A stretch of DNA of 64,000 nucleotides from an uncultured candidate division Zixibacteria bacterium. GTDB taxonomy: Bacteria > Zixibacteria > MSB-5A5 > GN15 > FEB-12. Each line of letters begins with the position of its first letter. Positions within the stretch are counted from its first letter, which is position 1. The notes beneath the pieces are model-generated. The model made no database searches and had not been told where the DNA came from. It saw nothing but the letters and a program-made list of their open reading frames with translations. Where the stretch lies: positions 640,001 to 704,000 of the forward strand of contig CAWDXE010000001.1 in assembly GCA_963806185.1 (NCBI GenBank). Reading direction: 5' to 3'. The position numbers and the translations under genes are program-made. Shown here in pieces: positions 1,787 to 29,507 of the stretch.

Positions 1787-1840
1787 TCAGGCTACGTTCC
1801 CCTCCATCCAGTTGCAGAACGCGTCTCGTAGACCCCGCCA
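1787..1840 (+). repeat. Junction repeat family A, copy A1 (att-like, tRNA-3'-like end)
   Basis: tcaggctacgttcccctccatccagttgcagaacgcgtctcgtagaccccgcca; minus strand reads WRGLRDAFCNWMEGNVA*. Confidence 0.85.
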
Positions 1841-2103
1841 GTATCCTAATGCGTAGTTAGACATACGCTTCCACTTATCCGGACTGTTAAATACACGGAA
1901 CTCAATCCATCGAAATTGAGTCGCATATTGCATGCGCGCACAAGAAGCACAACGGCTATCAAGCGAAGCTCGCTAAAGCCATTATTATCTATTCCACGAC
2001 TCGTCTGACGACATACCGATAGCCGAAAATTGCTCTAGGGCTGGCTAATGTTCTAAATTAACCTGATTGAACCGTTGACCGATGACGTGGAAGGAATTTT
2101 CAG

Positions 2104-3117
2104 ATGTCGGAATTCTCAGTAGCTGAGAAGCAGTTACTAATCGGGGTCAGGAGCATCGTGCTCAGAAGGGAGTCACCCGATAGATCTGCACTTGATGATT
2201 TCGGGAAGCGATTCTTCGATGATGATCTTGTGGATTGGACCGAAGCCTACGGAAGCCTCATAGCAAAGGGTTGTCTTCAATTCGACAACGGTCTCTACTC
2301 CTTATCGGACGAGGCTGCCAAGCTGGCGGCGGGATTTCGCAGAGAGAAGATGAGTTTCGGCTTCGATGAATGGATGATCAAATCCTGTGAGTGCAAAGCC
2401 TACTCGCGTTTCTGTGAACTTGTATATGGCATCGATCTCTGCCAGTGCAGCATGGTCGATCGGGAACAATTGGATAAACTCATGGAAGTACTTGATCTGA
2501 CTCCCGCCAACAGAGTGCTTGATCTCGGTTGCGGAGTGGGCAAAATCACCGAATACGTATCCGATAAGACAGGAGCGAATATCACGGGCGTGGATTTCGC
2601 AAAGGGTGTTATTGATCGAGCGAACGAGCGGACCGCAATGAAACGGGACCGATTGTCTTTCTGCGCCAGTGATATGAATGAGCTTGACTTCCCTGCCAAT
2701 TCGTTCGACACAATCATAGCGTTGGATACACTCTACTTTGTTGATGATCTCGATGAGACGATAGCGGCTATGAAGAAGATCCTTGGTGCAGCTGGGCAGA
2801 TGGGAGTGTTTTACAGCCAAATCATCAAGCCGGATGACTCAAGAGATCTTCTCGATGCGGATTCCACCCGGCTCGCAAAGGCCTTGCACAATAGCGGGCT
2901 TTCATACAGGACGTGGTGTTTCACGGACAGCGAGCATGAGATTTGGTGCAAGGAAAAGAGAATAGCTGAGGAATTGAAAGCCGACTTTGAGAGCGAGGGA
3001 TACTTGGATTTGTGCGAAAGCCGGGCCAAGGAGGCGGAGCAGCTGCTCGGAATAATCAAAGATGGTCGAGAAAGCCGACACCTTTACCACATAAAACTCG
3101 CTAACGTCGAGAACTAA
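2104..3117 (+). CDS. Class I SAM-dependent methyltransferase
   Basis: Motif I 'VLDLGCGVG', 'ITGVDF', 'FPANSFDTIIALDTLYF'; RBS-like ggaagga upstream. Confidence 0.85.
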   Translation: MSEFSVAEKQLLIGVRSIVLRRESPDRSALDDFGKRFFDDDLVDWTEAYGSLIAKGCLQFDNGLYSLSDEAAKLAAGFRREKMSFGFDEWMIKSCECKAYSRFCELVYGIDLCQCSMVDREQLDKLMEVLDLTPANRVLDLGCGVGKITEYVSDKTGANITGVDFAKGVIDRANERTAMKRDRLSFCASDMNELDFPANSFDTIIALDTLYFVDDLDETIAAMKKILGAAGQMGVFYSQIIKPDDSRDLLDADSTRLAKALHNSGLSYRTWCFTDSEHEIWCKEKRIAEELKADFESEGYLDLCESRAKEAEQLLGIIKDGRESRHLYHIKLANVEN

Positions 3118-3347
3118 ACTTGTACACATAAGCTCATCGGTTTATTCGTGGTCCATTTCCCTCCAAGGGGACAACGGACGTGCTCCTATGCTGACATGTT
3201 TCTTCTACCGCTTGTTGGTCGTCGTGCTTGGCGAATGGTGCGAGACTTCCAACTTCGGTTGGACCTACCGATTGTGCGTATGGCAGAGTAGGAGGCTAAA
3301 CGGAGGGCCCGTGGCAGTCCAGGGAAAGTGCAATCGGGGCTGCTCAG

Positions 3348-3401
3348 TCACGCCGGATACTCGATGACCCAGTTGCGGAACGCGTCTCGTAGACCCCGCC
3401 A
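3348..3401 (+). repeat. Junction repeat family A, copy A2
   Basis: tcacgccggatactcgatgacccagttgcggaacgcgtctcgtagaccccgcca; minus strand reads WRGLRDAFRNWVIEYPA*. Confidence 0.85.
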
Positions 3402-3723
3402 TTATCGTCGATCCATTTAAGCCATTGTAATCACCATTCATTCCTTACTATCGCCATCCATCTGTCTCTACTTTTGAGGCAACGCGAATCCCCAAGCAGT
3501 TCCTGCCATGCGACGGTTGTCAGCCGGCAAGGAACAATTACCAGCGGCGGTGAGAGACGAGATGTTCTGCTTTCTGGTTCTCGTTCAATTTTGATTGGAG
3601 ATTGTTGTGCATTACGGTCCCCTTCAACGTCCAGATATCCTGACAATACATTCCGGGCGCGCTCGTGGTGGGTGCCATGGCATCTCTTCACCGACGCGTC
3701 ATGTTTTCGTCACGGCTTCCGGC

Positions 3724-4977
3724 TTACGATTTGTCGAGGCTACGGATTTTCACATAGAGCGCAATCGCCAGTATGGTGATGAGAAGAGAAGAGATTCCGA
3801 GACCCCATCGGCGGAAATAGTATTCGCGGACAAGTGCTGCAGCGCCGGTTTGTACCGTTTTGGACTTTGCGAGGCCGTCAGTCGCATACGGAATCAAAGT
3901 GTCGAGGTTGAACGCATGGATAGACGACCGCATGTGAATCTCGACTTGGTCGGCATCCTTGAGGGCAAATTCGATATCGGTTACCATCATACCCCGCCTC
4001 GACGCTTCGTTGACCCTGGACCGCGATGAATCAATCGCGTTTGCCAGAGTCGCATAGAGTGTACTCATGCTGTCGATTTTTGCCGCCGCCGTTGTGCCAT
4101 CGCCGGCAGAGTGGCAGTTGCCGCAAAGTTGGCCGTCTCCCAGGCCTATGAGGGTCCTTGTCGGTGTGGTGATACCGTGATTGCTGTGGCACGTCTCGCA
4201 CATTGGCAAGCCCTGCGCCGCGAATGCCTCATAATGTGGTGATAACGCATACAGGTCGGCCTCGATCGCGTGACACATTCCACATACGGCCGATAAAGAA
4301 CTGGCCCCGGGTGGTGCTGCGCCGTGGTTCCCATGGCAATCGTTACAGACGGGCGCGCTCAGATCCATCTTCACGAATACTGCTTTGCCGTGAACTGATT
4401 TGCGGTAAAGCTCTTCCTGATCGGTAGGTATCCCGTATTCGGCCATGTAGTCGGCGTTGCTATGGCAGGCACCGCATGTAGAGGGAATGTTAGCCGGGTT
4501 CGTCGTCGAATAGGGCATGGCGGCGTCACCGATCTTGTGGGCCGTATGGCAGGAAACGCAGGTGGCCACCTTGGAATCGTTTTTCTGAAACAGCCGCTGG
4601 CCGTGAATCGAGGTCTTGTACTTGTCGAACTGATCAATCGGCAGTTTGGGGTTATGTTCGTGCATATAACGGGCGTCACCGTGGCAACGACTGCAAAACT
4701 CCGGTATTGCCGATCTTCCGGGCACACCCCGCCAGCCGGCGGAAGCTCGAACGGCGTCCATGTCATCCAGGGCGGGATTGCCGCCATGACAGTCGGAACA
4801 GTTCAGGCCTTTCTGGGCGTGGATATCGAGAGAGAAATCGTGCGCGGGTCCTTCGTCGCCTTCCAGCTCCAGGTGACAGATCACGCATTGACTCTGTCTG
4901 CTGCCCTGCGGCCAGACCGGTGCGGCCAGCGTGACGCAGAGAATTCCGCCCATGATGAAAAGCTTGCGGGACATCAT
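3724..4977 (-). CDS. Membrane-anchored multiheme (9 CxxCH) cytochrome c
   Basis: Signal peptide MMSRKLFIMGGILCVTLAAPVW; CVICH, CSDCH, CSRCH, CVSCH, CGACH, CNDCH, CGMCH, CETCH, CGNCH; C-terminal TM helix; ATGA overlap with the cytochrome b stop. Confidence 0.9.
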   Translation of the reverse strand: MMSRKLFIMGGILCVTLAAPVWPQGSRQSQCVICHLELEGDEGPAHDFSLDIHAQKGLNCSDCHGGNPALDDMDAVRASAGWRGVPGRSAIPEFCSRCHGDARYMHEHNPKLPIDQFDKYKTSIHGQRLFQKNDSKVATCVSCHTAHKIGDAAMPYSTTNPANIPSTCGACHSNADYMAEYGIPTDQEELYRKSVHGKAVFVKMDLSAPVCNDCHGNHGAAPPGASSLSAVCGMCHAIEADLYALSPHYEAFAAQGLPMCETCHSNHGITTPTRTLIGLGDGQLCGNCHSAGDGTTAAAKIDSMSTLYATLANAIDSSRSRVNEASRRGMMVTDIEFALKDADQVEIHMRSSIHAFNLDTLIPYATDGLAKSKTVQTGAAALVREYYFRRWGLGISSLLITILAIALYVKIRSLDKS

Positions 4978-6098
4978 TTGATCCAATACCCCACCAAGGT
5001 CATGACTACTATGAACGCCACCACGAAAACTCCGAAACTCATCCACCGTCGTGACGGCTCGTTGCGACTGGACCGCTTGTCCAGGAAGGGGACAAGAAGC
5101 CAGAGCAAACCGCCGAGCGACATGAGCAACATGCCGAACTGTTCGCCTTCGAGAAACAGGACTTTGGCCGGTAACAGCTTCAATGCCTGAAAAGCAAACA
5201 TGAAGTACCACTCCGGACGAATCACATCCGGTGGAGGCGCGAAGGGATCGGCCTTGTTACCGAGCGGCCAGTGAAAGACGCCAACGCCATCCGGAAACAC
5301 GACCGCAAGCAGCGCGAGGACGTTCAGCGCAACTAACCAGAGCAGAAGGTCGCGGTACAGGAAATTCGGAAAGAACTTCATGTACTTCTTCTTATCAGTC
5401 GCTTTATTCTCCCAGCCGATCGGCTCGCTCATTCCCTGACGCTGGACAAACAGCAGATGGATCGCGAGAACGGCGGTGAAGAGTGCCGGAAGAATGGCCA
5501 CGTGCAGTCCGAAAAAGCGGCCAATGGTCGCCCCGGTTACTTCCTCTCCTCCCCGCAGGATTACGAGCAAGTACTGACCAACGAATGGAATGGCGTGCAT
5601 CATTCCCGTTCCGACCCGGGTTGCGAAATATGACAGTTCGTTCCACGGTAGCAGATACCCGGAGAATCCAAAAGTGAGAGCAAGGCCGAGCAGGGCGATG
5701 CCGCTAAACCAGGTCAATTCTCTGGGAGGGCGATACGCCCGAGTAAAGAACACTGTGAACATATGAAGGAACGCCACGAAGATCATCAGATTCGCCGACC
5801 ATGAATGCAGAGAGCGAATTAACCAGCCGAAGCTGACCTCACTGATGATAAACTTCACCGATTCGTATGCCGAGTCCGCCCCCGGGCGGTAATACATCAG
5901 CAGGAGAATGCCGGTGCCGACCTGAATCAAGAACAGGAATATCGTCAGGCCGCCCAGATAGTAGAAGATTGAATGCCCGTGTACGGGCACAGTCTTATGG
6001 TCCATGTATTGGACCAAATCCTGAATCTTCAGGCGCTCGTCAAGCCAGGAGAATAGTCGTTGACGGCGGCCCGACGGCGCACTGGCTGGCGCAGCCAT
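4974..6098 (-). CDS. Cytochrome b of a Rieske/cytochrome b complex (b6-like N-domain fused to subunit IV-like domain)
   Basis: 'QVGTGILLLMYYRP', heme His pairs 'SLHSWSAN..FLHMF' and 'GLHVAILP..AIHLLF', 'GYLLPW', Qo motif 'PEWYF'. Confidence 0.93.
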   Translation of the reverse strand: MAAPASAPSGRRQRLFSWLDERLKIQDLVQYMDHKTVPVHGHSIFYYLGGLTIFLFLIQVGTGILLLMYYRPGADSAYESVKFIISEVSFGWLIRSLHSWSANLMIFVAFLHMFTVFFTRAYRPPRELTWFSGIALLGLALTFGFSGYLLPWNELSYFATRVGTGMMHAIPFVGQYLLVILRGGEEVTGATIGRFFGLHVAILPALFTAVLAIHLLFVQRQGMSEPIGWENKATDKKKYMKFFPNFLYRDLLLWLVALNVLALLAVVFPDGVGVFHWPLGNKADPFAPPPDVIRPEWYFMFAFQALKLLPAKVLFLEGEQFGMLLMSLGGLLWLLVPFLDKRSSRNEPSRRWMSFGVFVVAFIVVMTLVGYWIK

Positions 6099-6574
6099 CA
6101 GACAGGTTCCTTCGACACAAAGATTTCGGCACCTACTTCGTTCACCAGAAACACCTCCAAGGGCCGGGGTGGCGGCCCCGAGATATTTTTACCGTCAAGA
6201 CTATACCGACCATTGTGGCATGCACACCAGAGGACGCCTTCTTCGGGGCGATTCTGCACGGTGCAGTCGAGGTGGGTACACTGAGCCGAGAGTGCGCGAA
6301 GTTCGCCATTCGGCGTTAGAATGATGATGCCGAGCTTCTGTCCAAAGCGAAACGTTTTGGCACGTTTTGCCTCGGCCTCGATATCCTTTCGGCCAAACGG
6401 AAGTTTAACTTGATTGACTCTTGCTTCGCCCGAGGTAGGCGGGAGTAGGAAACGTATGGTCGGGTAAAGAATGGATGCTGATACGGCAATAGCGAAGAAG
6501 CCGATAAGACGATCAAGAAACCCGCGTCTCGTCAACCGTTCATTTGGGCTGTCGTTTGGCGCTGTCAAATGCAT
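6098..6574 (-). CDS. Rieske [2Fe-2S] protein
   Basis: Tat motif 'TRRGFL' plus TM helix; boxes 'CTHLDC' and 'CACHNGRY'; 'GPPPRPL'. Confidence 0.93.
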   Translation of the reverse strand: MHLTAPNDSPNERLTRRGFLDRLIGFFAIAVSASILYPTIRFLLPPTSGEARVNQVKLPFGRKDIEAEAKRAKTFRFGQKLGIIILTPNGELRALSAQCTHLDCTVQNRPEEGVLWCACHNGRYSLDGKNISGPPPRPLEVFLVNEVGAEIFVSKEPV

Positions 6575-6627
6575 ACACAGATGGTGCGATCTCTTCCCGG
6601 TTGTCGAGCAATTCAGCGTGCTCAGTG

Positions 6628-6789
6628 TCAGATGTTGACGCGATCATCCTCCGGTCTATCTTTTGGAGGTTCCTGCTGATCGTCTCCCGGGTCCTTCCGG
6701 CCTGAGATCATTCGTACGATGACCCACATGACCACGAACCCGAACAGGGCGATCGCTATCGGAGTTATCAAAGTTGCCAACGAATCCAT
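6628..6789 (-). CDS. Small single-TM protein heading the Rieske/cytochrome b operon
   Basis: GGAGG RBS, 53 aa MDSLATLITPIAIALFGFVVMWVIVRM followed by an acidic tail; co-oriented with the operon. Confidence 0.55.
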   Translation of the reverse strand: MDSLATLITPIAIALFGFVVMWVIVRMISGRKDPGDDQQEPPKDRPEDDRVNI

Positions 6790-7455
6790 AAACGCCTCCG
6801 CCGCCAAACACATGAGCGCAGTCTGTGAGACGTGTGACTACTATCCAAAACAACCGCGCGTTATGATTCTGGCTCAGAAGCAATCGACATGATGCAAAAC
6901 CCTGCTGACCCGGGAGATCCTGTAAGATCGGCGTCACACCTGCATACTGGGCCGCAAAATCAAAGGTCAGGATTTGAGAATGAAACCCCACAAGTATCCC
7001 TTGGGTCTCTGACCATCATGTCTAAGTCGATTCTCCCTCGGGAGTTCGATATGCCATTAATGTCGACATACAGAACCAAGTTTGTCAAGTTTTTTTTTCC
7101 AGCGCCTCGTCCTATGTCATTGCCCGCCCACACACACGCGGGCTATACATTGAGATGGCGGGCACTATGAAGGGAATGTGACGGAACTGTTACACTTGCC
7201 GTATGCTCCTTTTAGCGATTGGATTGATACCGGAGACCACGAATCTGAAGGATGATCTGAATCCAGATTTTAGAGTCTTGAGATGCGCGGGGGGACCGAA
7301 AGAAGCGACATCAAATCACTGATCGGTCAGCATTAGCCCAGCAGGATACACTGTCGGGTCGACTTGTCTTCAACCAGTGGGGTAGCGAACCCATTGTTGT
7401 AAAGTGGCTTATTGGTACCTCGAAGGTTTGATACGTCCGCCCGGGGGAGCCAACA

Positions 7456-7501
7456 CTAGGCCGAACTTTCAATTTCCTGGTTGCAGAACGCGTCTCGTAG
7501 A
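7456..7501 (+). repeat. Junction repeat family A, copy A3 (3' end degenerate)
   Basis: ctaggccgaactttcaatttcctggttgcagaacgcgtctcgtaga; minus strand reads LRDAFCNQEIESSA*. Confidence 0.78.
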
Positions 7502-7619
7502 TTCTGAGTATAAATCAGAATAATACATTTTTGATATGCGACAGTGCCACGCTGGCCAACAGCGCCTCCAAAATCACGAACGATTTCCGCCATGAAAGGC
7601 TAGCTATCGGAGCACAGAC

Positions 7620-9410
7620 CTATTTCTGAACAAGGTTCATGGTGCCTCCCGTGCCAACACTAACGAGTTCGGCCAGCGCTTCTTCCAGCTTCGAGAGTCG
7701 GGCCTTTAGTGCCGCATTCTCGGCTTTCATCTGCTCTTTCTCCCTCTCCAACGTTTGGATGGCAATCATCATGACTCCGGCCATATCGCCGGAGTTAATG
7801 CTGACTGAGTCTCCTGACAGACCTACACAGTCGTGTCCGAAAGCGGCATAGAACTCCTGCGCGACAGGACCATAATGGCGGAACCGGGTTGGATCGTTCC
7901 CCTTGTAGTTCCAACTCGTCAGGCTCAGTCCGCGAATCTTTCGAAGGACTTCTCCACCGTCCACGGGCTGGAAGTTCTCCTTTTGATTTTTGTCCGAAGT
8001 GAAAGTGTAAGCCACTTGCCCCTCAATAACAGTGACAGACGAGTTCCCCAGCCGGATCTTGTTACTGGCGTTCACGTTGGCGTTGTAGCCGATCGCCGTG
8101 GCGTTAAACAAGGCGTCGCTCGCAACATCCGCTGAATAACCTACCGCAGTGTTTTGGCGGCCAGTAGCATTGGTCAGAAGCGCGTTACTGCCGCAGGCGG
8201 CGTTGGAATAGCCGGTTGTGTTGTTTTCAAGTGCGCTGCCCCCGTAGGCCGTGTTGCTGTTGCCGGTGCTGTTTCGATAGAGCGCAGATTGGCCGCTGGC
8301 AGTGTTGCCTCCGCCAACAGTGTTGAAATAGAGTGCCCGGTATCCACTGGCGGTATTTGCAGAGCCGCTGGTATTGGAATAAAGCACTTTAGTTCCGCTG
8401 GCAGAATTGTAGCTGCCGCTCGTGTCAGAGTAGAGCGCCCCCAGACCACTGGCTGTGTTGGAGCGGCCGGTCGTGTTGCTATTGAGCGCAAGTTCCCCGA
8501 TCGCGGTATTGCTATCGCCAGAAATGTTGTTCTCCATTGCGCCTAGCCCGGTCGCGGTATTGTAAGTGCCGGAGACATTGCTTCTGAGCGCGTATTCCCC
8601 GGTGGCTGTATTGCCGTCGCCGGTAGTGTTGTTCTGCAATGCACCGAGACCAGTAGCGGAGTTGTAGTTGCCACTGGTATTTTGGGCGAGCGCACTTGTA
8701 CCAATGGCAACATTGTTGTTTCCAATCGTATTGCTACGGAGCGCAAACTCCCCGCTGGCGGTGTTACCGTGGCCAGTGGTGTTGAGGTTGAGCGCATTGC
8801 TTCCGTTGGCAGTGTTGAAGTAGCCGGTAGTGTTGCTAGACAGCGCATTCGGCCCAGTACCAACGTTGTCAGTGCCGGTCATCGTCAGGTTCCCCGTGTT
8901 TAGACCTACGAAGACGTTGTTGGTGCCGAAATTGTGGAGGAACAGTGTACCTCCTTTAACAATATTGCCGGTTGTTGCCGCTGAAGAGTCGAGATTGATA
9001 TTCCCGCTGATGCTCCCACCGGACGATCCATCAATCGTACTGACTCGATACGCGAACGGCACCGTGACAAGGCTCGTGCGGGGACTTAGCTCCGGATCGG
9101 CTCCGACTCTGACACCCAGGTAGCGTTTCGTGCTGCTGAAGACGGTGTCGGTGACGGGCGTCACCGTTCCGAGCAGGACGGCAAAAAGTCCACCCGAAGT
9201 GGTAACAGACTGCGTTTCGGTCCACTTGCTTGTGCCGCCGATAGCAGCATTGTAGATCGTAAACACGACCGAGTAGCTTCCGTCCGGCACTGTCATGCCG
9301 CCGGCTGTGGTCAGGCGACCCTGATAGTTTAAGGAAGTCGGTGTGACGGAGTAGGCACTCGATATTGTCAACACCAGGAAGGCGCACAAAGAATTGATTG
9401 AATGTTTCAT
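7620..9410 (-). CDS. Secreted trimeric beta-helix/fibre protein with C-terminal intramolecular chaperone (peptidase S74-like) domain
   Basis: Signal peptide; 'LNYQGRLT' N-domain; many 'NTAxGxxALxxNTTG' repeats; 'TSDKNQKENF..WNYK..HYGPVAQEF..AFG' chaperone motif plus coiled coil. Confidence 0.85.
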   Translation of the reverse strand: MKHSINSLCAFLVLTISSAYSVTPTSLNYQGRLTTAGGMTVPDGSYSVVFTIYNAAIGGTSKWTETQSVTTSGGLFAVLLGTVTPVTDTVFSSTKRYLGVRVGADPELSPRTSLVTVPFAYRVSTIDGSSGGSISGNINLDSSAATTGNIVKGGTLFLHNFGTNNVFVGLNTGNLTMTGTDNVGTGPNALSSNTTGYFNTANGSNALNLNTTGHGNTASGEFALRSNTIGNNNVAIGTSALAQNTSGNYNSATGLGALQNNTTGDGNTATGEYALRSNVSGTYNTATGLGAMENNISGDSNTAIGELALNSNTTGRSNTASGLGALYSDTSGSYNSASGTKVLYSNTSGSANTASGYRALYFNTVGGGNTASGQSALYRNSTGNSNTAYGGSALENNTTGYSNAACGSNALLTNATGRQNTAVGYSADVASDALFNATAIGYNANVNASNKIRLGNSSVTVIEGQVAYTFTSDKNQKENFQPVDGGEVLRKIRGLSLTSWNYKGNDPTRFRHYGPVAQEFYAAFGHDCVGLSGDSVSINSGDMAGVMMIAIQTLEREKEQMKAENAALKARLSKLEEALAELVSVGTGGTMNLVQK

Positions 9411-9709
9411 ACACTTAGGCCTTTATGAAAGTGAGCGGACTGAATTCAGCGTTGCGCGGACAAGTACTGCCCATATTATCCTCAATATAGTCGGATGCAC
9501 GAGCTTTCCTATGGAAATGAATTTGTGTCACCGGAAGAGCGGGTTAGCGTTGGCTCTGTGCATTGTAGCTTATCACGACCATGATTTTCGGCCGATTGGT
9601 AGGGCAACAATCCCGCTAAACGGCAATGTGCCTCGTGAAACGTATCGAACTCTCGAAGTTGAGACCAAACTGGCCGAGTCATAACGGCATCGCAAGAAAC
9701 GGTACTGCA

Positions 9710-9801
9710 TTCGATGGTGAATCTGTCTCGGCAGGAGTCTACTTGTATCGCCTCACAGCTGGCAATGTTGCTGAGACAAAAAGAGGCTGTTGCTCAAGTA
9801 T
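9710..9801 (+). pseudogene. Orphan 3' remnant of a secretion C-terminal sorting domain (FlgD/T9SS-type CTD)
   Basis: Reads FDGESVSAGVYLYRLTAGNVAETK, then LLLK after a 1-nt frameshift; matches the end of the intact S8 protease CTD in this window (SSGVYLYRLSAG..TRKMLLVK*); no gene body upstream. Confidence 0.6.
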
Positions 9802-10028
9802 GGGCTGGGCGACTGTGATACCAGAGGCAAGTTTGTCGCTCTGCCCTTCTCCATTCTGTGAAATGCCAACAATTCCGCATCTAATCCCACTGTTATCCAT
9901 CGTGGCCCACCAATTCGAGCACATTGTGAACGGATGGGAAACCGAAAAGTCATGGGTTCTGGACGATCAGAGAAGCCAGACTGGGTGCGGTCGTGCCAGG
10001 TCGCGCCAGACCGCACAACGTGACTTAG

Positions 10029-16062: not shown

Positions 16063-16078
16063 TTGATTGAAATGCAGT

Positions 16079-19797: not shown

Positions 19798-19810
19798 AAT
19801 CTATCGAACG

Positions 19811-20530: not shown

Positions 20531-21631
20531 TCAGAACCGCAGATCCAAACCAATCCCGCCCGTCAGATCAAGATAGTCATACACCCAGTAGTTCGACTGC
20601 TTGTGATAATTGCGGAGATGTCCTACAAGGGTTACCAGGTCACTGAGCTGGTATCGGTGCTCAAACTGAAAATCGGCGTAGTCGATGTGCACCCGGTTGA
20701 GACGGCCGATACTGCTGTTCCAGTAGTTGGGGTAATCTTTGTTCTTGAATTCGAATGAGATTCGGGTTTGATGCCGACCGCCGGGATACAGTTTGAGATC
20801 GATCTGATACCGGCGCTGCATGTAACCGTAGAAATTCTCGAAATTATCATTGCGATCGATGTACTGCAGCGTGACGCCGACTTCATTCTTGCGCCAGAAT
20901 TGACACGTTCCGGCAATAAGGGTGCTGTTCTCCCGGAAGCTGCGAATCTCGAATGGCCGATTTACGAACGCACCGTATCTGACGGTGTACGTCCGCCGCT
21001 TGTCGTAAGTTCGTCGCTCCGACGCGAATTCGGCGCGTAATTCCACCCGGTCACCCATCGGCACATGCGCCCCGACCTGAACGTCTCGACTAATGTAGTC
21101 GTAGGAAGTCAGTCCCGGTTCCTCGTCATAGTTCTCACCCTGATACGTAAAGCTCTGGTCAAAGCGAACGCCAAACAGTTCAACCCGATTCCAGAGACCA
21201 AAGGTGCTTTCCCATCGTTTCAACGTTCGTGACTGAAGAGTCCCGGTGTCGTCTATCAGATCCTTGTTGCGGCGTCCCACCGAAACCTCACCCCCCACTC
21301 TGCCATTTTTCGCATAGCGATAAGTCGGTTCATACGCGAAGCCAAGCGAACTTCTGTTTCGGTTGCTGTAGCTCGGATATGCATCCAGGTCTGTCGACAC
21401 TGTTACGCGCTGGCTCAGCCTTGGCGTGAGCCGAAGCTGCCAGTTAAGGTCGGCAGCCAGTTGATTCAGGAAGGCCGACGTCTGAATCGAATCGGCATAG
21501 GCATGATAGATATTGGATTCGTATGCGCCCTGATAGGAGGTGGAGAACTCCCATCGCGACTTCGACTTTACCTTGGCAAAACCACTGGTCGCCAGCAACA
21601 GCGCACAGACTAAGATGACGGGTGATCGCAT
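20531..21631 (-). CDS. Outer-membrane beta-barrel protein
   Basis: Signal peptide, 'YESNIY' start motif, alternating strands, C-terminal 'GIGLDLRF'. Confidence 0.7.
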   Translation of the reverse strand: MRSPVILVCALLLATSGFAKVKSKSRWEFSTSYQGAYESNIYHAYADSIQTSAFLNQLAADLNWQLRLTPRLSQRVTVSTDLDAYPSYSNRNRSSLGFAYEPTYRYAKNGRVGGEVSVGRRNKDLIDDTGTLQSRTLKRWESTFGLWNRVELFGVRFDQSFTYQGENYDEEPGLTSYDYISRDVQVGAHVPMGDRVELRAEFASERRTYDKRRTYTVRYGAFVNRPFEIRSFRENSTLIAGTCQFWRKNEVGVTLQYIDRNDNFENFYGYMQRRYQIDLKLYPGGRHQTRISFEFKNKDYPNYWNSSIGRLNRVHIDYADFQFEHRYQLSDLVTLVGHLRNYHKQSNYWVYDYLDLTGGIGLDLRF

Positions 21632-21650
21632 AGGTGTATGTTCCTGTGTG

Positions 21651-23372
21651 TTATTGGCCCATCAGAGCCTGGTACTCGCGATTGAACTTTTCCGATTCCG
21701 GCTTGGCTTCAGCCGCCTTGGCATACGCCTCTCGGGCTTTGTCTTTCAGATCCAGCTTCAGATATATCTGCCCGAGTTTCCAGTATGATTTCCAGTTGTC
21801 TGAATCGTTCTCTATTGCCTTCTGAAGTAGCTGCACCGCTTCAGTCAGGCTACCGCTCTTTTCTTCCAGAATCGCCAGATTGTGATACGCTTTAGCGTAA
21901 GTCGGGTCGCGCTTGATTGCCTCGCGCAAGTCAGCCCGGGCGTCATCGATTCGGTTGAGTTCACTGAAAGCTTTAGCGCGGTTGAAGTAGGATTCCGGTG
22001 AATGAGTTAACCCTATTAATCGGGTCAAATAGACCGCCGCAGAGTCATACTCTTCAAGTTTCAGGTAGGTGGTGCCGAGATTGTTAAGCCCTTTTGTATT
22101 CACCGGATCCTGATCGAGCAAGGTGTGATAGGCCGCGGCCGCATCCTCCGACTTGTCCTGCTTACTGGAACACAGCGCCAGATTGAAGAGGGCCTTCAGG
22201 TTTTCCGGATCGAGTTCCACCACATTGCGGTAGGCGATTTCGGCTGAATCGAACCGCTGACGATCATAATAGAGCTGCGCCAGACTGAAATATGCCTTTG
22301 AATAGTTCGGCTTGAGCGCTACCGCCGCCCGGTAATGTCTCAAGGCACTATCGGGCTGATTCGCCTTTTCAAACAGCAGCGCCAGGTTATAGTGCGCTTC
22401 ATGATAACTGCTGTCATACTTGATTGCCGCGCGGTACGCCTCGGCGGCTTTATCGAATCGTTCCAGATGGTTGTTGGCGATGGCCAGGTTGAAATAGGTT
22501 GCGGCGTCAGTTGGCTCGATCACAATCGCCTTCTCATACGCGCCGACAGCCTTGTCATACTGCTCCACCTTGCTGTAACAGACGCCGAGATTCTTGAACA
22601 CGCGCGACTTCTTCATCCCCAGCGATGCCACCTTCTCAAAATCGCTCGCGGCTTCGGCGTACTTGCCGTCGTTCATGCGAATGAGGGCCAGGTTGTAGCG
22701 CGCTTCCGTGTATCCAGGCCGCAAGCGCAAGGCGTCGAGATAGCTCTTCTCGGCCTGCTTGTCGTTCTTCAGTCGATGATAAACCAGCGCCAAATTGTAG
22801 TGTGCCGGTGCCGACTCGGCCGACTTGCGAATCTCCGTCGCCTTCTTAAACCAGGTGATCGCGTCATCGTTTGATCCGATGGACATGTACAGCGTGGCCA
22901 GGTTGTAGTTCGGCTTATAGTAGAATGGCCGGAGCGCGATGGCTTGTTTATACGATCTTATGGCATCGCCCATCTTTTCGGTGCGATGATATACGATCCC
23001 CAAGTTGTACCACGCACGCGCGTACCCGGTATCGATTTCAAGCGCCTTCTTCAGGTACGGAATAGCGTCGCTGTACGCCTTCTTGGTGATGAGCACTGAG
23101 GCCGAGTCGTTGTAGGCAACCGCCTGCGGATTGCGACTATTGGTCATCTCATCGTCAGCGTCTGTCGACGAAGAATCGGCTGTAGAATCGACCACCGGCT
23201 GCGATTCAATCTCCGATGCGGTCGACCCCTGCGTGATCGGAGCAGCCGCTTGAGCGGTGACGTGAATGACTTCGCGCCGCTTGTCGTCAATCGAGCCGCT
23301 CTTTTCCACGGCGAAAACGACAACCGCCGCGGCGCAGATCCAGGCAATGATATTAATGATATAGTACTTCAT
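21651..23372 (-). CDS. Exported tetratricopeptide-repeat protein
   Basis: N-terminal hydrophobic segment, then many 'A.YNLA..Y......A...Y..A....P' TPR units. Confidence 0.88.
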   Translation of the reverse strand: MKYYIINIIAWICAAAVVVFAVEKSGSIDDKRREVIHVTAQAAAPITQGSTASEIESQPVVDSTADSSSTDADDEMTNSRNPQAVAYNDSASVLITKKAYSDAIPYLKKALEIDTGYARAWYNLGIVYHRTEKMGDAIRSYKQAIALRPFYYKPNYNLATLYMSIGSNDDAITWFKKATEIRKSAESAPAHYNLALVYHRLKNDKQAEKSYLDALRLRPGYTEARYNLALIRMNDGKYAEAASDFEKVASLGMKKSRVFKNLGVCYSKVEQYDKAVGAYEKAIVIEPTDAATYFNLAIANNHLERFDKAAEAYRAAIKYDSSYHEAHYNLALLFEKANQPDSALRHYRAAVALKPNYSKAYFSLAQLYYDRQRFDSAEIAYRNVVELDPENLKALFNLALCSSKQDKSEDAAAAYHTLLDQDPVNTKGLNNLGTTYLKLEEYDSAAVYLTRLIGLTHSPESYFNRAKAFSELNRIDDARADLREAIKRDPTYAKAYHNLAILEEKSGSLTEAVQLLQKAIENDSDNWKSYWKLGQIYLKLDLKDKAREAYAKAAEAKPESEKFNREYQALMGQ

Positions 23373-24244
23373 AGTCTCTTCCGTAAACCGGCCTGATTGG
23401 CCAGTTGAATATTCAGTCCCGGGCGGGCGTTTACTTCCAGAATCAATGGCCCCTGAACAGCATCGCAGACGAAATCCACGCCGATATACCCCAGTCCGAC
23501 AATTTCGCTTACGCGCGACCCTATCTCGAGCATTTCCATGAAATAGGGAATCGGCTGACCCGCCAGCGGCGCGCTCGACTCCGGATGATGCCTGATGATA
23601 TCGTTGTGGTGTACGCCATCAAGCGACAGCCCGGTGGCGATGTCGATCCCTACCCCGATACCTCCTTGGTGAAGATTCGCCTTGCCATCCGACTCCTTGG
23701 TCGGCAGGCGGCACATTGCCATAATGCACCGATCCAACTTGTATATCAGGCGGATATCACCAACTCCTTCGATCCCCTCCGGGATGAATGGCCGCAACTC
23801 GGGGTGATTGACTACGGTCTCTTCGAAATAGCACGTGTCAGCCACATTATCCAGGGAGAACGCACCGTTCAGTATCTGTAAGACATGGAAAGATACATCC
23901 TCAGCTGTCCACTCTTCCCCGGACGATTGATAACCACTCTCCGTGCGCTTGACGAGCTTGATCCCGTTACCGCCGTAACCGGTATTCGGCTTGATGACAA
24001 AGTTCGGAAATTCGCGCACGACTACTTCCCAACGCGCCAGTGACCTGGGATCGATAACCTCGTGATACGTTCGTGGAGTCGGAATGCCCGCCTTGGACAA
24101 CAACTCCTTACAACGCAACTTGTCGTCGACATTCGGAAAGAATCGACGTTCGTTGTGGGTGTAGATCAAGTCAAGATTGCGGGCGTTGATCCCCAGAACT
24201 CCTTTGCGCGAGGGTAGCCAATTGGTCAGTCTATCTTTCAGCAT
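23369..24244 (-). CDS. Alpha-L-glutamate ligase-like ATP-grasp protein (RimK-related)
   Basis: 'GVLGINARN..IY..N.RR.FPNVDDKL.CK', 'FVIKP..GYGGNGI', 'GDIR', 'RLPT..SDGKANLHQGG', 'GYIGVD', 'LEVNARPGLNIQLAN'; true start MLKDRL (the 24877 start overlaps the upstream gene). Confidence 0.9.
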   Translation of the reverse strand: MLKDRLTNWLPSRKGVLGINARNLDLIYTHNERRFFPNVDDKLRCKELLSKAGIPTPRTYHEVIDPRSLARWEVVVREFPNFVIKPNTGYGGNGIKLVKRTESGYQSSGEEWTAEDVSFHVLQILNGAFSLDNVADTCYFEETVVNHPELRPFIPEGIEGVGDIRLIYKLDRCIMAMCRLPTKESDGKANLHQGGIGVGIDIATGLSLDGVHHNDIIRHHPESSAPLAGQPIPYFMEMLEIGSRVSEIVGLGYIGVDFVCDAVQGPLILEVNARPGLNIQLANQAGLRKRL

Positions 24245-24246
24245 GC

Positions 24247-25848
24247 TCAAGCCCGTATCAACAGATGTTTGAATCGAACATATTCCATGAGGCGAAATCC
24301 GGAATACCTCCCGATGTAGATGTAGAGCGCTATGACAACGAGTATCAGCTCCGGAAAGCTTATCACTAATGACTGGAGGAAGCGCCACGACATGAGGCCG
24401 TAGGCCACCGCCGCGACCGCGAGCGTCAGGGCGGCAGTCCGTGCGGCATGCTTTACGCCGAATTCTTCCGTTACCAACGAGAATCGTTCGACCGTCAGCG
24501 TCAGTATCACCATGGGAAACAGCGCAACTCTGGCAACGTCGAGCCAGCCCAGGCGAACGCCCAGAATGGTGATGCCGAGTATGAACAGCACCAACGAGGA
24601 GAGGATGATGGCCAGCCGTGGGGTATGGAGCAACTGCAGTCGGGATAGGACTAATCGCACCAACGCGCCAAAAGCAATGATGGTCGCAAACAGCGCAACG
24701 CCGATAGTCAGGCCGGTATCTCGAAAACCGATCGCCAACAGGGCAGGCATGAACGTGCCAAAGGTTTCGATGCCGATAAGGTTGCGAAAGAGTACCACTG
24801 CCAGAATACCGATCGGCAACATGATGATAATGCGTAGTAGTTCGAGCGAGATAGCGACTCGCTTGAAGGTCGCCCATATATTGAGAATATCGAGCGGGCT
24901 TTCGCCGGCCGTGGTTATCCCGGCACTGTTCTGAACCAGTCGCTTTTTCAGATTGAAGAAGTACTTGAAATTGATGTCTTTCGTGTGCGTGATCGCCGGT
25001 TTCTCGCCGTAATACAATATGAGATAATCGGACGGGATTTCCGCAAAGTACTTGTTGGTCGGGCAGAAGGGCACCCAGTAACCGGCTATATACGCTTCCA
25101 CCCAGATGTGTGTTGCCCGTGACTGCCCCTGGCTCAGTATCTTTCCTCCTACCAGACGCGTCGGCAATCCAATATGACGGGCCAGGGCAGCAAATAGCCG
25201 CGCTTTACCGCCGCATGACGCTTCTCCCAGATGGTACGCGGTCAGCGCATCCGTAGTCCCCGAGTACTGCACATACTTCAACCCGAAGGTGGTGAAGTTG
25301 TAGATAGCGCGTGTATTTGCAAGCACCGTACTATCGGGCGAAAGGGCCAACGAATCGGCCAACCTTGCCATCTCAGGGCTGTCGGATTGAATGGCGGTGT
25401 CGGTCAATAGATACCTGGCAACCGAGTCGGGAACGGATTCACTTGATATCAGAGTGGAATCGATGACGAATTTCTGGTTCTTCGTTATCACCGTCGCCGT
25501 GTAGGTAAGCCGCCGCCGCCCGTCCACGCCGTCAGAACGCCAGACCCCGAGCCGATCTCCATCGATCGTCTCCACTTCGAATTTCAGATCGCCTGAATTG
25601 AACGCCTCGTCCGAGACGGACTGGTTGGTTAGATTCTGCGGGAGAGCCATCGCAATGTCTACCGCTGAGCCGTGACCGTCAAACTCCATCACCGTCTCCA
25701 GGTAGTAGCTCTCGGTCTGGACGATGGCATCAAGCGTATACCCAAGATAGGCGATCTTGAAAAACGCCATGGCGGAGGCCGCCGTCACCAGCAATGCCGG
25801 CAGTACACCGACCAGCCATCGCGAATTGTGGCGAATTCTCACGGACAT
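24247..25848 (-). CDS. Transglutaminase-like domain fused to a 7-TM domain (usual partner of this ATP-grasp family)
   Basis: 'ASCGGKARLFAALAR..GLPTRLVGG', 'HIWVEAY..YWVPFCPT'; 7TM part 'RNLIGIETFGTFMPALLA', 'ALFPMVILT..VERF', 'GRYSGFRLMEY.RF'. Confidence 0.88.
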   Translation of the reverse strand: MSVRIRHNSRWLVGVLPALLVTAASAMAFFKIAYLGYTLDAIVQTESYYLETVMEFDGHGSAVDIAMALPQNLTNQSVSDEAFNSGDLKFEVETIDGDRLGVWRSDGVDGRRRLTYTATVITKNQKFVIDSTLISSESVPDSVARYLLTDTAIQSDSPEMARLADSLALSPDSTVLANTRAIYNFTTFGLKYVQYSGTTDALTAYHLGEASCGGKARLFAALARHIGLPTRLVGGKILSQGQSRATHIWVEAYIAGYWVPFCPTNKYFAEIPSDYLILYYGEKPAITHTKDINFKYFFNLKKRLVQNSAGITTAGESPLDILNIWATFKRVAISLELLRIIIMLPIGILAVVLFRNLIGIETFGTFMPALLAIGFRDTGLTIGVALFATIIAFGALVRLVLSRLQLLHTPRLAIILSSLVLFILGITILGVRLGWLDVARVALFPMVILTLTVERFSLVTEEFGVKHAARTAALTLAVAAVAYGLMSWRFLQSLVISFPELILVVIALYIYIGRYSGFRLMEYVRFKHLLIRA

Positions 25849-27371
25849 GACGCGGCCCCTACGATATCACGACGAGTCACGGCCGATCCCGCCTTGGAGC
25901 AGTTCGGATATTGCGTAATCACCGTGCAGTATTCGGAATGGGCAGGGGCATTGTTGGATGATCCATTGAGCTGCTCGTAACAACGGCCCGCCCAGTAGTG
26001 AGCGTCGCCTGCATCCTTTGCGGTAGGATAGCCGTTGTAGTAAGCCTGATAAGCGGTCAGTGCGTTCGTGTAGTCCGCATCATTATAGTAGGCGGTGGCA
26101 ATTCTGTATTTGGCGTCGGAGACAAAGTCGTTGGTCGGATACGTAGCGATAAACGACTGGTAGAGCGTAACGGCGGTCGGGAAGTTACCCAGATTGTATT
26201 CACAGTTGGCCTTGTAATAGGCCGCGTGTGGGGCGTAGGACGAGGTCGGAAATTTCACCCGCACCGAATCGAAGTCATCGCGGGCCTGAATAAACGTGTT
26301 GGTCTCCATCTTGTATTTGCATTGCGCCCGGTAGTACCAGCACTCGGCAATCTTATCTCCCGTTGGATAGGCACTGATGGCCGTATTGAATTGCGTCAGG
26401 GCCTGCGAATAATTGTCCTGATTGTAATATGACATCCCCTTGTAATAACTGGCCCGCTCGGCGTTCAGTGTGTTGGGATACTGCGTGATAACCTTGGTAA
26501 ACTGCGTGATCGCCGAGGTCCACTGGTCGGTGCTGTAATAGAGATACGCTGAACCGTAAATCGCATCAGGCGCATTCAGTGAGCTCGGGTAGGTGGTTTC
26601 CACCGCCAGGTAGGCCGCGATGGCTGACGAATAACTGGCAAGGGCTTCGTATTCGCGTCCAACTCGATACTGAGCCTGCGGGGCGATGAATCGGGTGGCG
26701 TAATTGGTCACGACGAACTGAAAATCCGCCAGCGCACTGTTAAAATTCCGCTTGGCGTCCTTGTAGGCTCCGCGCCAATAGTAGGCATCCGGAACCAGGC
26801 TGTCGGCAGGAAACGTACTTATCAGGACGGAAAAATTATTGATCGCTGAATCGTACATATTCTGCTGACCAAATGCCAGGCCGATACGATAGCGACTCAC
26901 CGCCGCATATGGTCCGGTCGGATTACCGGAAATCAGGTTGCGAAGACGCGCTATGGCACTGTCGGTATGATCGTACGTATACATCCGCATCGCCTCGCCG
27001 AACAGTTGCGCCACCGTGTTGTTGCTTGCCGCCAGTGTCACTGTCGGATTGGATACGGTTTGCCCGGCTGTCGTCACGGCGACACCGGCCAGATTCTGAT
27101 CCGCGTATCCGGCTTTCGAGAATGTCAGCGTGTAGGTACCATATGGCACGCCGACAATCGTATAGCTGCCGGCGCTATTCGTGGCACCGATAATGCCGGT
27201 ATTCCCGACATACACGAATATCCCCGCATGGTTGCCTGTACCTGATAACGTCGCCGTTCCAGTCACGGTACCGGACGGAATGAGGTCAACATTCACAAAT
27301 GTCGTGTCTGCCTGGGCCAGGGTTGTGCAAAGACTGATGGCCGTCAAAGTAAGAAACAGGACTCGCTTCAT
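25839..27371 (-). CDS. Exported protein with a carboxypeptidase-regulatory-like domain and BamD/CpoB-like TPR array
   Basis: Signal peptide; 'TN..G.YTI.GVP.GTYTLTFSKAGY'; repeats 'A...F..VI..YP......DA.Y..G'. Confidence 0.82.
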   Translation of the reverse strand: MKRVLFLTLTAISLCTTLAQADTTFVNVDLIPSGTVTGTATLSGTGNHAGIFVYVGNTGIIGATNSAGSYTIVGVPYGTYTLTFSKAGYADQNLAGVAVTTAGQTVSNPTVTLAASNNTVAQLFGEAMRMYTYDHTDSAIARLRNLISGNPTGPYAAVSRYRIGLAFGQQNMYDSAINNFSVLISTFPADSLVPDAYYWRGAYKDAKRNFNSALADFQFVVTNYATRFIAPQAQYRVGREYEALASYSSAIAAYLAVETTYPSSLNAPDAIYGSAYLYYSTDQWTSAITQFTKVITQYPNTLNAERASYYKGMSYYNQDNYSQALTQFNTAISAYPTGDKIAECWYYRAQCKYKMETNTFIQARDDFDSVRVKFPTSSYAPHAAYYKANCEYNLGNFPTAVTLYQSFIATYPTNDFVSDAKYRIATAYYNDADYTNALTAYQAYYNGYPTAKDAGDAHYWAGRCYEQLNGSSNNAPAHSEYCTVITQYPNCSKAGSAVTRRDIVGAASCP

Positions 27372-27418
27372 GGTTTGCTCCCTATATTCTCAGTCGTCAT
27401 TTTCCGGTTGATAACCGC

Positions 27419-27922
27419 TCACTGGCACGCCGGCAGCGGAGTGAAATTGATGAAAAGATTGTCGATAAGTGCGGTCAGATCGCCGATATCGACATTGCCG
27501 GTTGGATCGCCATCGCAGTTGGCCTCCTTCACACAACACAGCGGCGTGAAGGTGATAAACAAATTGTCTATCAAGCCGGTCAAATCGCCGATGTCGACAC
27601 CGTCGCCCGGCGAGCAGTCAACATTGCCGACTGTCGCCACACAACAGGTGCCAACGGCAACATTCGTGCGGATGAGTGGTTGGTAGTTGGAGCGCCCAAC
27701 CAGAAAGGTATACGCCCCGTCAGGCACGTTCGGGAATAAGTACTTTCCGGTTACGTCCGTCTGGGTGCTGTCTCCTGTCTGCAGTATCTTGACCACCACG
27801 TTTGGAACCGGCTGGGCCGTCACGGAGTTCTTTACAACTCCGCTGACCGTCCGAGCGGCTACGTGTGTCCCGACTATGCTGACAAAGACAAGGATGAGAA
27901 TCAGTTGGAAGAACTTTGACAT
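27419..27922 (-). CDS. Small secreted protein with a carboxypeptidase-regulatory-like domain and dockerin-like CTD
   Basis: Signal peptide; 'VSGVV....T.QPVPNV.V....TD..GKY.F.NVPDG.Y'; CTD. Confidence 0.85.
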   Translation of the reverse strand: MSKFFQLILILVFVSIVGTHVAARTVSGVVKNSVTAQPVPNVVVKILQTGDSTQTDVTGKYLFPNVPDGAYTFLVGRSNYQPLIRTNVAVGTCCVATVGNVDCSPGDGVDIGDLTGLIDNLFITFTPLCCVKEANCDGDPTGNVDIGDLTALIDNLFINFTPLPACQ

Positions 27923-28193
27923 GCTTAGGCCCGTAGCTAAGGGTTCAAAGAATCGATGATTGGCTGTCTTTCAATCAAGAACAGCACGGGTCCAATTTGG
28001 TGCATTTTCAAGCGAAGATTTCTGAAAAAACTTCGCTGGCGACTTACTTTAGTGCGAGACCGGGCGATGGAGATATTCCCCGAACCCGAGCGCCAAATGC
28101 CTATCACGCGTCTATCTAACCAAGATATCAATTATCGGCATTTCGTCAAGAAGGCAATAGTCCCATGCTGCCGAAGCAGTAATATGGATTATG

Positions 28194-29300
28194 TTACTCT
28201 GTGATACGATCTTTATGGCCTTCAAAGAGAGATTGATAAGCGGCATATCGTGGTAGATTCGGCCCCGCGTACAGTCGTTTCGGCCAGGCGAGCAACATCA
28301 CGGCCAGCACGTTTCGATGCTCCCCCTGAGCCAGATCGGTGTTGCCGAGTACGGACGGAATCATACGGTTCTTTGCATCGTACGCTTTGACAATCGCCTT
28401 GCGGCAGGCGTCGACCAGCGGGTTCTGTTCCTGCCGGGTGAGGCAAAAGCATAGACCTACCTCGGCGATAATATCCGGCGTGGCTTCTTGCAGGATTCGC
28501 CGACTCCTCGCGGCGAAGTAAGAAGTGATTCCGCCATATGCAGAAGAGTCAACCCATTCCTGATAGTAGCAGCTTGCAGCGAGAACGATGTGAGTTAAGG
28601 CATATAGCTTGTCGCCAAACTCGTCGGCATCAAGATTGCGATCGAGCGAGTCCGGGAAAACGCTTTCTACCACGGCCCGGTACGAATCTCGAAAATCAGC
28701 TGCACCCAGCGCCTGGAGGTAATAGACGTAGTTTACCGCCTGCGGAGCGAAGACACGAACGACGGCTGTGTCGAGGAGAAACGGGGCAAAATTGTGTGCC
28801 GCTACCACCTGCTTGGCGCGTTCGAAGAGTCCGGAGAACCGCGAAGAATCGAGCCCGTACTCAAAGAGCTTGTTAGTCTGTGTCAGAACGTTGAGATAGA
28901 TCAGCTCCCCTTCCCATTTCTTGAGCACCTCACCCCGCATTTGTGCCTTTCGGGTATTGCGGGAGAACGGCTGGAACAGACCGGCCGTCCGTTGCTCGCA
29001 GTAGTCCGGATCCCCGAGCGAATCCAAGTCGCGCTCGAGTTGATCGATGGTCAGGCTGACATCAAAGAGGATCGGATAGATGAGCGAGGTATCACCGGTG
29101 GTACGGTAGATTCGCACGGCATAGTGGCGTTGGATATCGGGATCCAACGTGTGCAGGGAGGACTCGAATCCGGTCCTGATCTCTCCCGCAATCCGTGCAT
29201 ATATGTCTTTCGCATTTATGGTCGGGCAGTATCCCACACACATTGCAACCAGAAGCAGGGATGCAACGGGACTGAGCCAGCGAATGAAGGATGACTTCAT
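28194..29300 (-). CDS. DUF3541-like exported protein
   Basis: 'QRHYAVRIYRTTGD', 'YALTHIVLAAS.YYQ', 'DIIAEVGLCF', 'GEHRNVLAVMLL' recalled as DUF3541 motifs; signal peptide from MKSSFIRW. Confidence 0.65.
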   Translation of the reverse strand: MKSSFIRWLSPVASLLLVAMCVGYCPTINAKDIYARIAGEIRTGFESSLHTLDPDIQRHYAVRIYRTTGDTSLIYPILFDVSLTIDQLERDLDSLGDPDYCEQRTAGLFQPFSRNTRKAQMRGEVLKKWEGELIYLNVLTQTNKLFEYGLDSSRFSGLFERAKQVVAAHNFAPFLLDTAVVRVFAPQAVNYVYYLQALGAADFRDSYRAVVESVFPDSLDRNLDADEFGDKLYALTHIVLAASCYYQEWVDSSAYGGITSYFAARSRRILQEATPDIIAEVGLCFCLTRQEQNPLVDACRKAIVKAYDAKNRMIPSVLGNTDLAQGEHRNVLAVMLLAWPKRLYAGPNLPRYAAYQSLFEGHKDRITE

Positions 29301-29456
29301 TAATAGAAGATCAGGCAAACTCGCCAATTGTCAAGTTAAGAAACCACCGTAACGTTATCCCCTTTAAGCAATTGGCCACGACCTCTTCCTCCGATTGAGC
29401 AGCTGTCATAACATTATAATGAGGAGGGAGCTTATCACTTTGTCGGCCTGATGGTC

Positions 29457-29507
29457 TCAGGCAGTCCCTATCACCCGGTTGCGGAACGCGTCTCGTAGAC
29501 TCCGCCA
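29457..29507 (+). repeat. Junction repeat family A, copy A6
   Basis: tcaggcagtccctatcacccggttgcggaacgcgtctcgtagactccgcca(ctatc); minus strand reads WRSLRDAFRNRVIGTA*. Confidence 0.85.

Follow-up and report, generated by a model that had tools for sequence, protein, structure and literature searches.

The window analysed here is a 64,000-nt stretch of DNA from an uncultured Zixibacteria bacterium (C1:640001-704000 of the host genome G000, which is 82% complete), and it carries six copies, j1 to j6, of a short repeat that resembles the final 16-18 nt of tRNA-Asp. No tRNA was found inside the window with ARAGORN, and an Rfam scan of positions 1-32000 was without matches; upstream of the window by 8.2 kb, in the same orientation, are a tRNA-Val and a tRNA-Asp(GTC) gene. 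The six repeats stand 10-38 kb downstream of this intact tRNA-Asp and on its strand, which is the arrangement of displaced 3' fragments that marks tandem islands. A 13-mer shared by them has six exact matches, all on the plus strand, and none in each of 100 shuffles. According to the original prediction, the opposite strand of these repeats preserves the C-terminal tail of a stranded recombinase, ending in alanine and a stop and possibly acting as a degradation signal. When the window was translated, all six antisense peptides were located on the minus strand where they had been described, although only j5 (one of six) reaches Ala-Ala in frame, with a stop just upstream of its tail; the tails of j1, j2, j3 and j6 end in VA, PA, SA and TA, respectively. 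The six junctions and the traces found with them, including those of large serine recombinase (LSR) genes, are as follows.

j1, 1787..1840, minus strand: WRGLRDAFCNWMEGNVA-stop (ending WMEGNVA); element arm coding an LSR tail, joined to a tRNA-Asp-like 3' tip, 9,987 nt past tRNA-Asp.
j2, 3348..3401, minus strand: WRGLRDAFRNWVIEYPA-stop (ending WVIEYPA); the arm-side 365 nt are 91% identical to a junction arm in G036.
Decayed tRNA-Asn-type junction (WLPRADVSNL..), 7420..7452, minus strand: abuts the j3 stop and resembles an intact-looking copy at G000 C1:491330-491400.
j3, 7456..7509, minus strand: LRDAFCNQEIESSA-stop (ending QEIESSA); tRNA-side tip lost.
j4, 10029..10081, minus strand: LRDAFRNWVIE; the tail has lost 1 nt, which puts the NAA-stop that follows into the neighbouring frame.
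j5, 16010..16063, minus strand: MRG-stop, then RDAFCNWVIENAA-stop; 16 nt identical to the 3' end of the host tRNA-Asp.
Decayed LSR 3' end behind j5, 16060..16115, minus strand: matches the tRNA-proximal LSR end in L062 at 19 of 22 nt; a hairpin and a T-run come after it on the plus strand.
j6, 29457..29507, minus strand: WRSLRDAFRNRVIGTA-stop (ending RVIGTA); one codon short.
Broken LSR C-terminal remnant of the same LSR clade, 36203..36379, minus strand: about 55% identity over about 50 aa, with internal stops.

Lesions are present in j3, j4 and j6. The decayed end at 16060..16115 gave no match by protein HMM. The remnant at 36203-36379 is likely the outer junction of the array and is joined to a decayed tail of another family, of the RPQSPQT / RPQ(YH)SPQT type; this family has no Ala end and is found intact in P0009, P0191, L064 and L065. 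When the whole genome was scanned in six frames for D-x-F-[RC]-[NT]..A-stop, there were six matches, namely five of the window copies and a seventh copy behind tRNA-Asn. The window copies have no intact LSR gene behind them and are read as decaying relics, or at most as binding sites for an LSR supplied in trans. The six repeats are probably the scars of elements that were stacked behind tRNA-Asp, each coding for the last 15-16 residues of an LSR, in which this tail was likely a degradation tag.

Tail peptide and recombinase

The DNA core and an acceptor-like tip, and not the tail, served to define the junctions, which were de-duplicated to 132. A stop follows within 15 codons in 118 of these, and in 114 it stands 6-8 codons from the tryptophan; the stop is TAA in 53 of the 114, TGA in 44 and TAG in 17. 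The closed tails end in Ala in 102 of 118 cases and in Ala-Ala in 75. Another 57 core matches had been rejected as tip-less; 33 of them had no stop, and an Ala end was found in 7 of 24. Pairwise pN/pS over the tail codons was 0.33 (n = 61) and 0.30 (n = 42) in two length classes picked by stop position, as against 1.0 and 0.97 past the stop, in a set whose copies are related and which holds a few chance matches. Four other frames over the tail gave 1.0-2.0, and the sense frame that shares third positions gave 0.38 and 0.29. Because the sense frame is equally low, the coding strand is fixed by the stop codons and by the LSR bodies that are in frame with the tail.

The RDxFRNW core behaves differently from the residues that follow it. 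At synonymous positions that the search pattern did not fix, it hardly varies (29, 29 and 27 of 30), so that the core is conserved as DNA, probably as a recombinase binding site. Together with the low sense frame, this is what one would expect if the whole repeat were conserved purely as a DNA-binding site and the peptide reading were a by-product. We consider that explanation very improbable, since VIENAA-stop varies mostly at third positions, three stop codons are used at the same antisense place and the frame continues into LSR bodies; for the tail part it is largely refuted. By these substitution patterns, the VIENAA-stop part alone is under protein-level selection. The original prediction would have been refuted by a lack of codon-position bias across copies, and the bias is clear, with third positions varying most in that part.

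A profile built from five natural LSR-tail fragments retrieved P0179, a full-length LSR of 504 aa (PF00239, PF07508 and PF13408) with a tail of the window peptide type. Its C-terminus reads ..WRGLRDEFINWAIRNLAA-stop, or ..TYKKPFSILAEGTQTQKWRGLRDEFINWAIRNLAA-stop and ..QKWRGLRDEFINWAIRNLAA-stop in longer and shorter renderings, with RNLAA as the final residues. Both P0179 and P0003 score above the cut-offs of the three families, the catalytic motif Y-x-R-V-S is near-invariant in these LSRs, and the predicted fold of P0179 matches serine integrases at an E-value of about 1e-20. P0179 is a full-length recombinase with the kind of end, RDAFxNWVIENAA-like, that had been proposed for the excised state. 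In contrast to P0179, P0184, which is 83% identical to it, ends in ..WRG-stop. The same was seen in a second LSR subfamily, in which the frame of L109 (open to the contig end) ends in ..KKRGLRDDFRNWVIKNSAA-stop and matches 113 of 125 residues of P0177, which ends in ..KKRG-stop; in L457, a member of this subfamily is found at tRNA-Asp. LSR remnants in frame with a tail were found in L024, L083, L108, L160 and L016.

Many of the phylum's LSR genes terminate antisense to the 3' end of a tRNA gene, and those overlapping tRNA-Asp (L061, L062, L073, L077, L078 and others) end in ..RG-stop or ..MRGRRDSNSRP(H/P)A-stop. The open reading frame (ORF) crosses the attachment (att) site, so that the excised and integrated forms differ in their C-termini, as in the pairs P0179/P0184 and L109/P0177 and in the viral L372/L377 compared with L374-L376. 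We are close to certain that the peptide is the C-terminus of a tRNA-targeting LSR whose gene spans its own att site. The original prediction had looked for the tail at the extreme C-terminus of LSRs near tRNA-Asp; P0179 carries it, and the LSRs adjoining tRNA-Asp end in tRNA-antisense residues. Its further claim, that integration swaps one tail for another, holds in part, as tRNA-derived ends are seen but integration in most hosts truncates the protein at RG-stop and LRDAFRNW most likely belongs to the element arm too. A tyrosine recombinase was rejected as the owner of the tail; a PF00589 gene lies upstream of many of the LSRs but does not cross the site. Database entries for the LSRs of this kind mostly have tRNA-derived or truncated ends, and those who mine them for genome engineering unknowingly choose between two forms of the protein.

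The position of the crossover was read from the junctions. Position 66 of the tRNA is C in all 150 tRNA-type T-arm matches listed (at least 150; 41 others exist), whereas junction position 66 is A in 117 of 132; positions 67-69 are variable and C70-C72 near-invariant. On this comparison, the crossover is most likely in the acceptor stem, at about tRNA positions 70-72, and catalysis is predicted to take place there. A crossover in the T-loop, which the original prediction implied, was rejected for most copies by the same difference at position 66. About 116 of the 150 listed T-arm matches (hand count) read an antisense TGA just past the crossover, so that integration usually truncates the LSR. 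In viral contigs, L372 and L377 (..YKKCA-stop) diverge from L374-L376, which have tRNA-type and tmRNA tails, right at the tRNA tip, and in the viral LSR pairs a T-loop-like hexamer lies five columns further out in the attP form. This shift recalls the 5-bp offset between attP and attB of the site bound by the LSR zinc ribbon. Of the viral contigs L375 and L376, one has its LSR at tRNA-Leu and the other has a near-identical LSR at tmRNA, which points to a relaxed choice of target among 3' ends that bear a T-arm.

The LSR gene contains a second conserved feature just before the crossover, where, on the tRNA strand, the codons of KPFxxxA[KE]G make up a 9-bp hairpin with a T-rich run after it (L061:2784-2822, L062:2016-2054 and 34 other loci, as well as 36247-36285 and 16077-16115 in the window). 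The peptide motif was used to choose 37 sequences, in which pairing holds for 96% of cells and both sides have changed in 24, with the two-sided changes falling in only two pairs and the sequences being related; the controls gave 0 of 500 for shuffles and at most 4 for slid positions. The Lys/Glu change in the motif covaries with a synonymous position of the Phe codon. The hairpin is likely a tRNA terminator or a DNA palindrome within the LSR gene. A consensus terminator scan at j5 found nothing, though hairpin and T-run are visible there.

The degenerate core pattern was present in 62 of the 285 genomes of the phylum, where the junction motif serves as a precise marker of island borders, and the reversed pattern gave 11 single matches (hand count). 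It also occurred in 113 stretches from metagenomes and 97 from genome collections, among which there are chance matches. Viral contigs held no match to the exact junction pattern and 49 loci by a looser one, which were left out of the junction counts (the sets of 132 and 142). Among sequencing runs there were two low-share holders and no RNA run was listed; their contigs are too sparse for excision joints and give no evidence either way.

Degradation tag or helix

Comparative evidence leads us to hold, with moderate confidence, that the tail is an ssrA-like degron for ClpXP. Terminal Ala-Ala is critical for ClpXP recognition (PMC10862746, PMC7142297), and a native C-terminal Ala-Ala degron is shown in PMC7142297. 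The host has adjacent clpP and clpX genes and a tmRNA tag that ends in YAMAA, and only 2 of its 1091 frames of at least 400 aa end in Ala-Ala. The tail of an unrelated, Asn-type junction in G000, ..LPRADVTRTFSAFIEHMWSAA-stop (ending HMWSAA), has an x-Ala end too. Viral LSRs without a T-arm end in [AVCIL]A in 8 of 10 cases, the other two being at contig ends, compared with 2 of 20 for those with a T-arm, where sorting was by a hairpin test that apparently mis-sorted L393.

In the excised circle, the LSR gene would read through attP into the tail; if the tail is a degron, the protein would be degraded fast, and proteolysis would let the circle make only a short burst of integrase. An insertion at the tip of the tRNA leaves the tail behind at the element's distal end and truncates the LSR gene. 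Each new insertion at the tip would displace the older blocks outward and leave an attP-like junction, and such inner junctions would re-tag any older LSR behind them. We tentatively extend this to a very large clade of tRNA-targeting LSRs, for which there are about 8,600 representatives at E<=1e-30 and in which recombination may work as a proteolysis switch: the enzyme of the circle would be x-Ala-tagged, insertion would cut off the tag, often via the antisense stop of the tRNA, and a later insertion would re-tag the older integrase and thereby stabilize tandem arrays. In the same scheme, the coding region would also contain the covarying hairpin, which would serve to terminate the tRNA transcript, and blocks without integrase would pile up like integron cassettes.

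Several observations weigh against the degron and the scheme built on it. An E. coli screen showed that Ala-Ala is required yet does not suffice by itself, with short polar residues depleted just before it (PMC10862746). The commonest tail 5-mers, IENAA and ENSAA, carry a short polar residue in that place and may be weak tags by the E. coli preference. None of five near-full-length phylum LSRs without a T-arm ends in Ala, and the tails of P0009 and P0010 are non-Ala. Among 150 representatives, classed by a rough regular expression and with nine excluded by length, an [AVCIL]A end occurs in 7 of 28 'other long' tails compared with 3 of 90 tRNA-antisense tails. In hosts that lack the antisense stop, the integrated tail ends in Ala too (RPHA, RPPA); of the 45 LSRs of the phylum that have a T-arm, 6 end in Ala and none in [AVCIL]A. 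About 12 of 142 junctions, j5 among them, match the tRNA 5' of the proposed crossover. The junctions are related, their counts are not independent and a few chance matches are included. The tail came up on just one full-length LSR, whose DNA context did not turn up in the phylum search (best match 74%). The E. coli consensus [LFYW][LAR]LAA can be set beside the RNLAA of P0179; it describes the E. coli ClpX, and that of the host may differ.

The same att and tail origin would also fit a tail that forms a structural or regulatory helix and alters the activity or directionality of the excised form, with Ala-Ala being no degradation signal. The V, I, E and N of the tail are conserved as well as its last two residues, and some attP-type tail families lack Ala. 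There are also precedents, as integration of Myxococcus phage Mx8 gives int a new 3' end and changes its specificity (PMC6070905), and DsiB of Dehalococcoides was proposed to be fully functional on the circle only (PMC3146451). AlphaFold gave residues 475-503 of P0179 as one helix, but the modelled tail has low confidence (pLDDT about 55-66) with thin alignment cover, and the model is undecisive between the two readings. We regard the helix as unlikely, because unrelated tails have only the terminal x-Ala in common and because Ala-Ala ends are so strongly avoided in host proteins (the 2 of 1091 above).

Cargo blocks of the array

The blocks between the repeats are 1.6-13.4 kb long and contain no recombinase. 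They are listed here with the DNA on either side of the array, the blocks from j1 onwards without strand.

1..1786, plus strand: last part of the tRNA-proximal block, with two-component genes and those of a Kdp-like potassium pump (a by-eye call from the translations), no LSR.
1841..3347: block j1-j2; SAM methyltransferase gene at 2104-3117; in G036 and G163, homologous DNA lies against a junction of this type.
3402..7419: block j2-j3; Rieske, cytochrome b and multiheme cytochrome c genes.
7510..10028: block j3-j4; 596-aa repeat protein with an S74 chaperone domain.
10082..16009: block j4-j5; OMP beta-barrel-like protein and two SBBP beta-propeller proteins.
16116..29456: block j5-j6; cupin, FG-GAP, TPR, ATP-grasp, transglutaminase-like and DUF3541 genes.
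29508..36202: block after j6, up to the LSR remnant; ArsR-type regulator, DsbD-like, AraC and oxidoreductase genes.

An intact LSR is absent from every block, and the array thus lacks the integrase of its own that Islander expects in each island. In the whole of G000, at 82% completeness, there was no match to PF07508 or PF00239, and the only two PF00589 matches are both on other contigs. Arrays fetched from relatives have the same layout, with the junctions downstream of tRNA-Asp and in its orientation. Examples of elements that are still intact occur in G040, G089 and G116.

Such a row of blocks could instead, though with lower probability, be a still-active, integron-like cassette array in which blocks without integrase are moved by an LSR in trans and the junctions stay conserved through ongoing use, an explanation that fits the origin of the tail but not plain decay in place. 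An LSR remnant could be detected in the 300 nt behind no more than 9 of 142 junctions, many tRNA-proximal blocks are without an LSR, and the flank past position 74 is low in information. The methyltransferase block of j1-j2 adjoins the same junction type in G036 (90%) and G163 (74%). From the scarcity of LSRs behind junctions and the recurrence of this block, some blocks may have moved without an integrase of their own. For the array in the window, continuing activity seems rather doubtful given the lack of PF07508 and PF00239 matches in G000, the lesions in j3, j4 and j6, and the LSR genes decaying in place at j5 and at 36203-36379.

Other features were seen in and around the array. A left end without LSR is conserved directly behind the junction in three records (window 1841-1920, L116 and L275/L450; antisense RWIEFRVxNSP-like). 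Just past the array, at 36481-45740, lies a nitrous-oxide-reductase-like cluster (Rrf2, cytochrome c, nos propeller, NosL, NosD and ABC transporter) that also has a heme-copper oxidase subunit and a hemerythrin. Several secreted proteins share a DVGDLTALIDNLF-like C-terminal module (10824-11096, 13247-13519, 19593-19795, 27403-27629 and 50754-50941), which we take to be dockerin-like.

Elsewhere in G000, a 1.4-kb island at tRNA-Asn (C1:491170-492740) is closed by an Asn-type junction with the antisense tail ..HMWSAA-stop. The seventh Asp-type copy abuts this junction directly, with about 157 bp of flank duplicated, and Asn-type and Asp-type junctions stand back to back twice in the genome, at this island and in the window at j3. 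Other displaced 3' fragments of tRNA or tmRNA genes mark islands in G000 at C7 (tRNA-Leu at 4568, tRNA-Ser at 79329 and 121911) and C5 (tRNA-Met at 189656). Two full copies of the tRNA-Asp T-arm per contig were found in G027:C28, G105:C10, G123:C32, G142:C18, G162:C50 and L077, which hints at a further family of elements with a larger duplicated part of the tRNA. The LSR islands at tRNA-Asp in L448, L452 and L475 share a module of an LSR, a 370-aa tyrosine-recombinase-like gene, a 165-197-aa ORF, a QueC-like gene with a partner ORF, and restriction-modification genes, and this conserved module looks like a defence island.

Comparison with known systems

The LSRs described here resemble SPbeta SprA/YokA, Bxb1, phiC31, A118/LI and TP901-1 in fold and in their domains (Resolvase, Recombinase and zinc ribbon), and their catalytic motif is intact. 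Unlike those large serine integrases, members of this clade target the 3' tips of tRNA genes and span their own att site. Serine integrases were stated in 2015 not to be known to target tRNA genes (PMC4383910), and the word 'tRNA' occurs 0 times in the main text of Durrant 2022 (PMC10083194). No description of an att-toggled degron on a serine integrase was met in the main texts searched, from which absence from print is not established; the parts covered of PMC10111431, PMC12884075 and PMC10083194 held nothing bearing on it. If the degron is real, serine integrases would gain directionality and dosage control that need no extra gene.

The archaeal SSV 'suicidal' integrases also have att within the integrase ORF, and a tandem insertion rebuilds the attP form (PMC7253208). 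However, they are tyrosine recombinases that are split into two inactive parts, and their tandems are not observed, whereas only about 15 residues are lost here and tandems are common. A degron would explain why tandem arrays of att-spanning integrases persist here. Myxococcus phage Mx8 has its attP within int; on integration the integrase acquires another C-terminus and its behaviour is altered (PMC6070905), but that integrase is of the tyrosine type (PMC4383910) and the reported effect is on specificity or efficiency, not on proteolysis.

The Dehalococcoides ssrA islands are alike in layout. A reverse-strand LSR, DsiB, overlaps attL by its 3' end, tandem islands are stacked behind a small-RNA gene, and it was suggested that the proper 3' end comes from the circle or from an island next to it (McMurdie et al. 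2011, PMC3146451). In contrast to the present clade, with tRNA-Asp as target and a probable crossover in the acceptor stem, DsiB targets tmRNA with a T-loop crossover. The parts of that paper covered describe no conserved tail or degron, and 16 of its islands keep the integration module.

The likeness in regulation is to mycobacteriophage BPs with its integration-dependent immunity, in which integration strips a C-terminal proteolysis tag from the gene that spans attP (PMC3694055). In BPs that gene encodes the repressor, and the integrase is tagged but is not the gene split by attP; here, the ORF that crosses the site is the LSR. The att-spanning layout of an integrase gene (DsiB, Mx8, SSV) and the removal of a tag by integration (the BPs repressor) are therefore already known, and the degron, if true, would extend the BPs principle from the repressor to the integrase itself.

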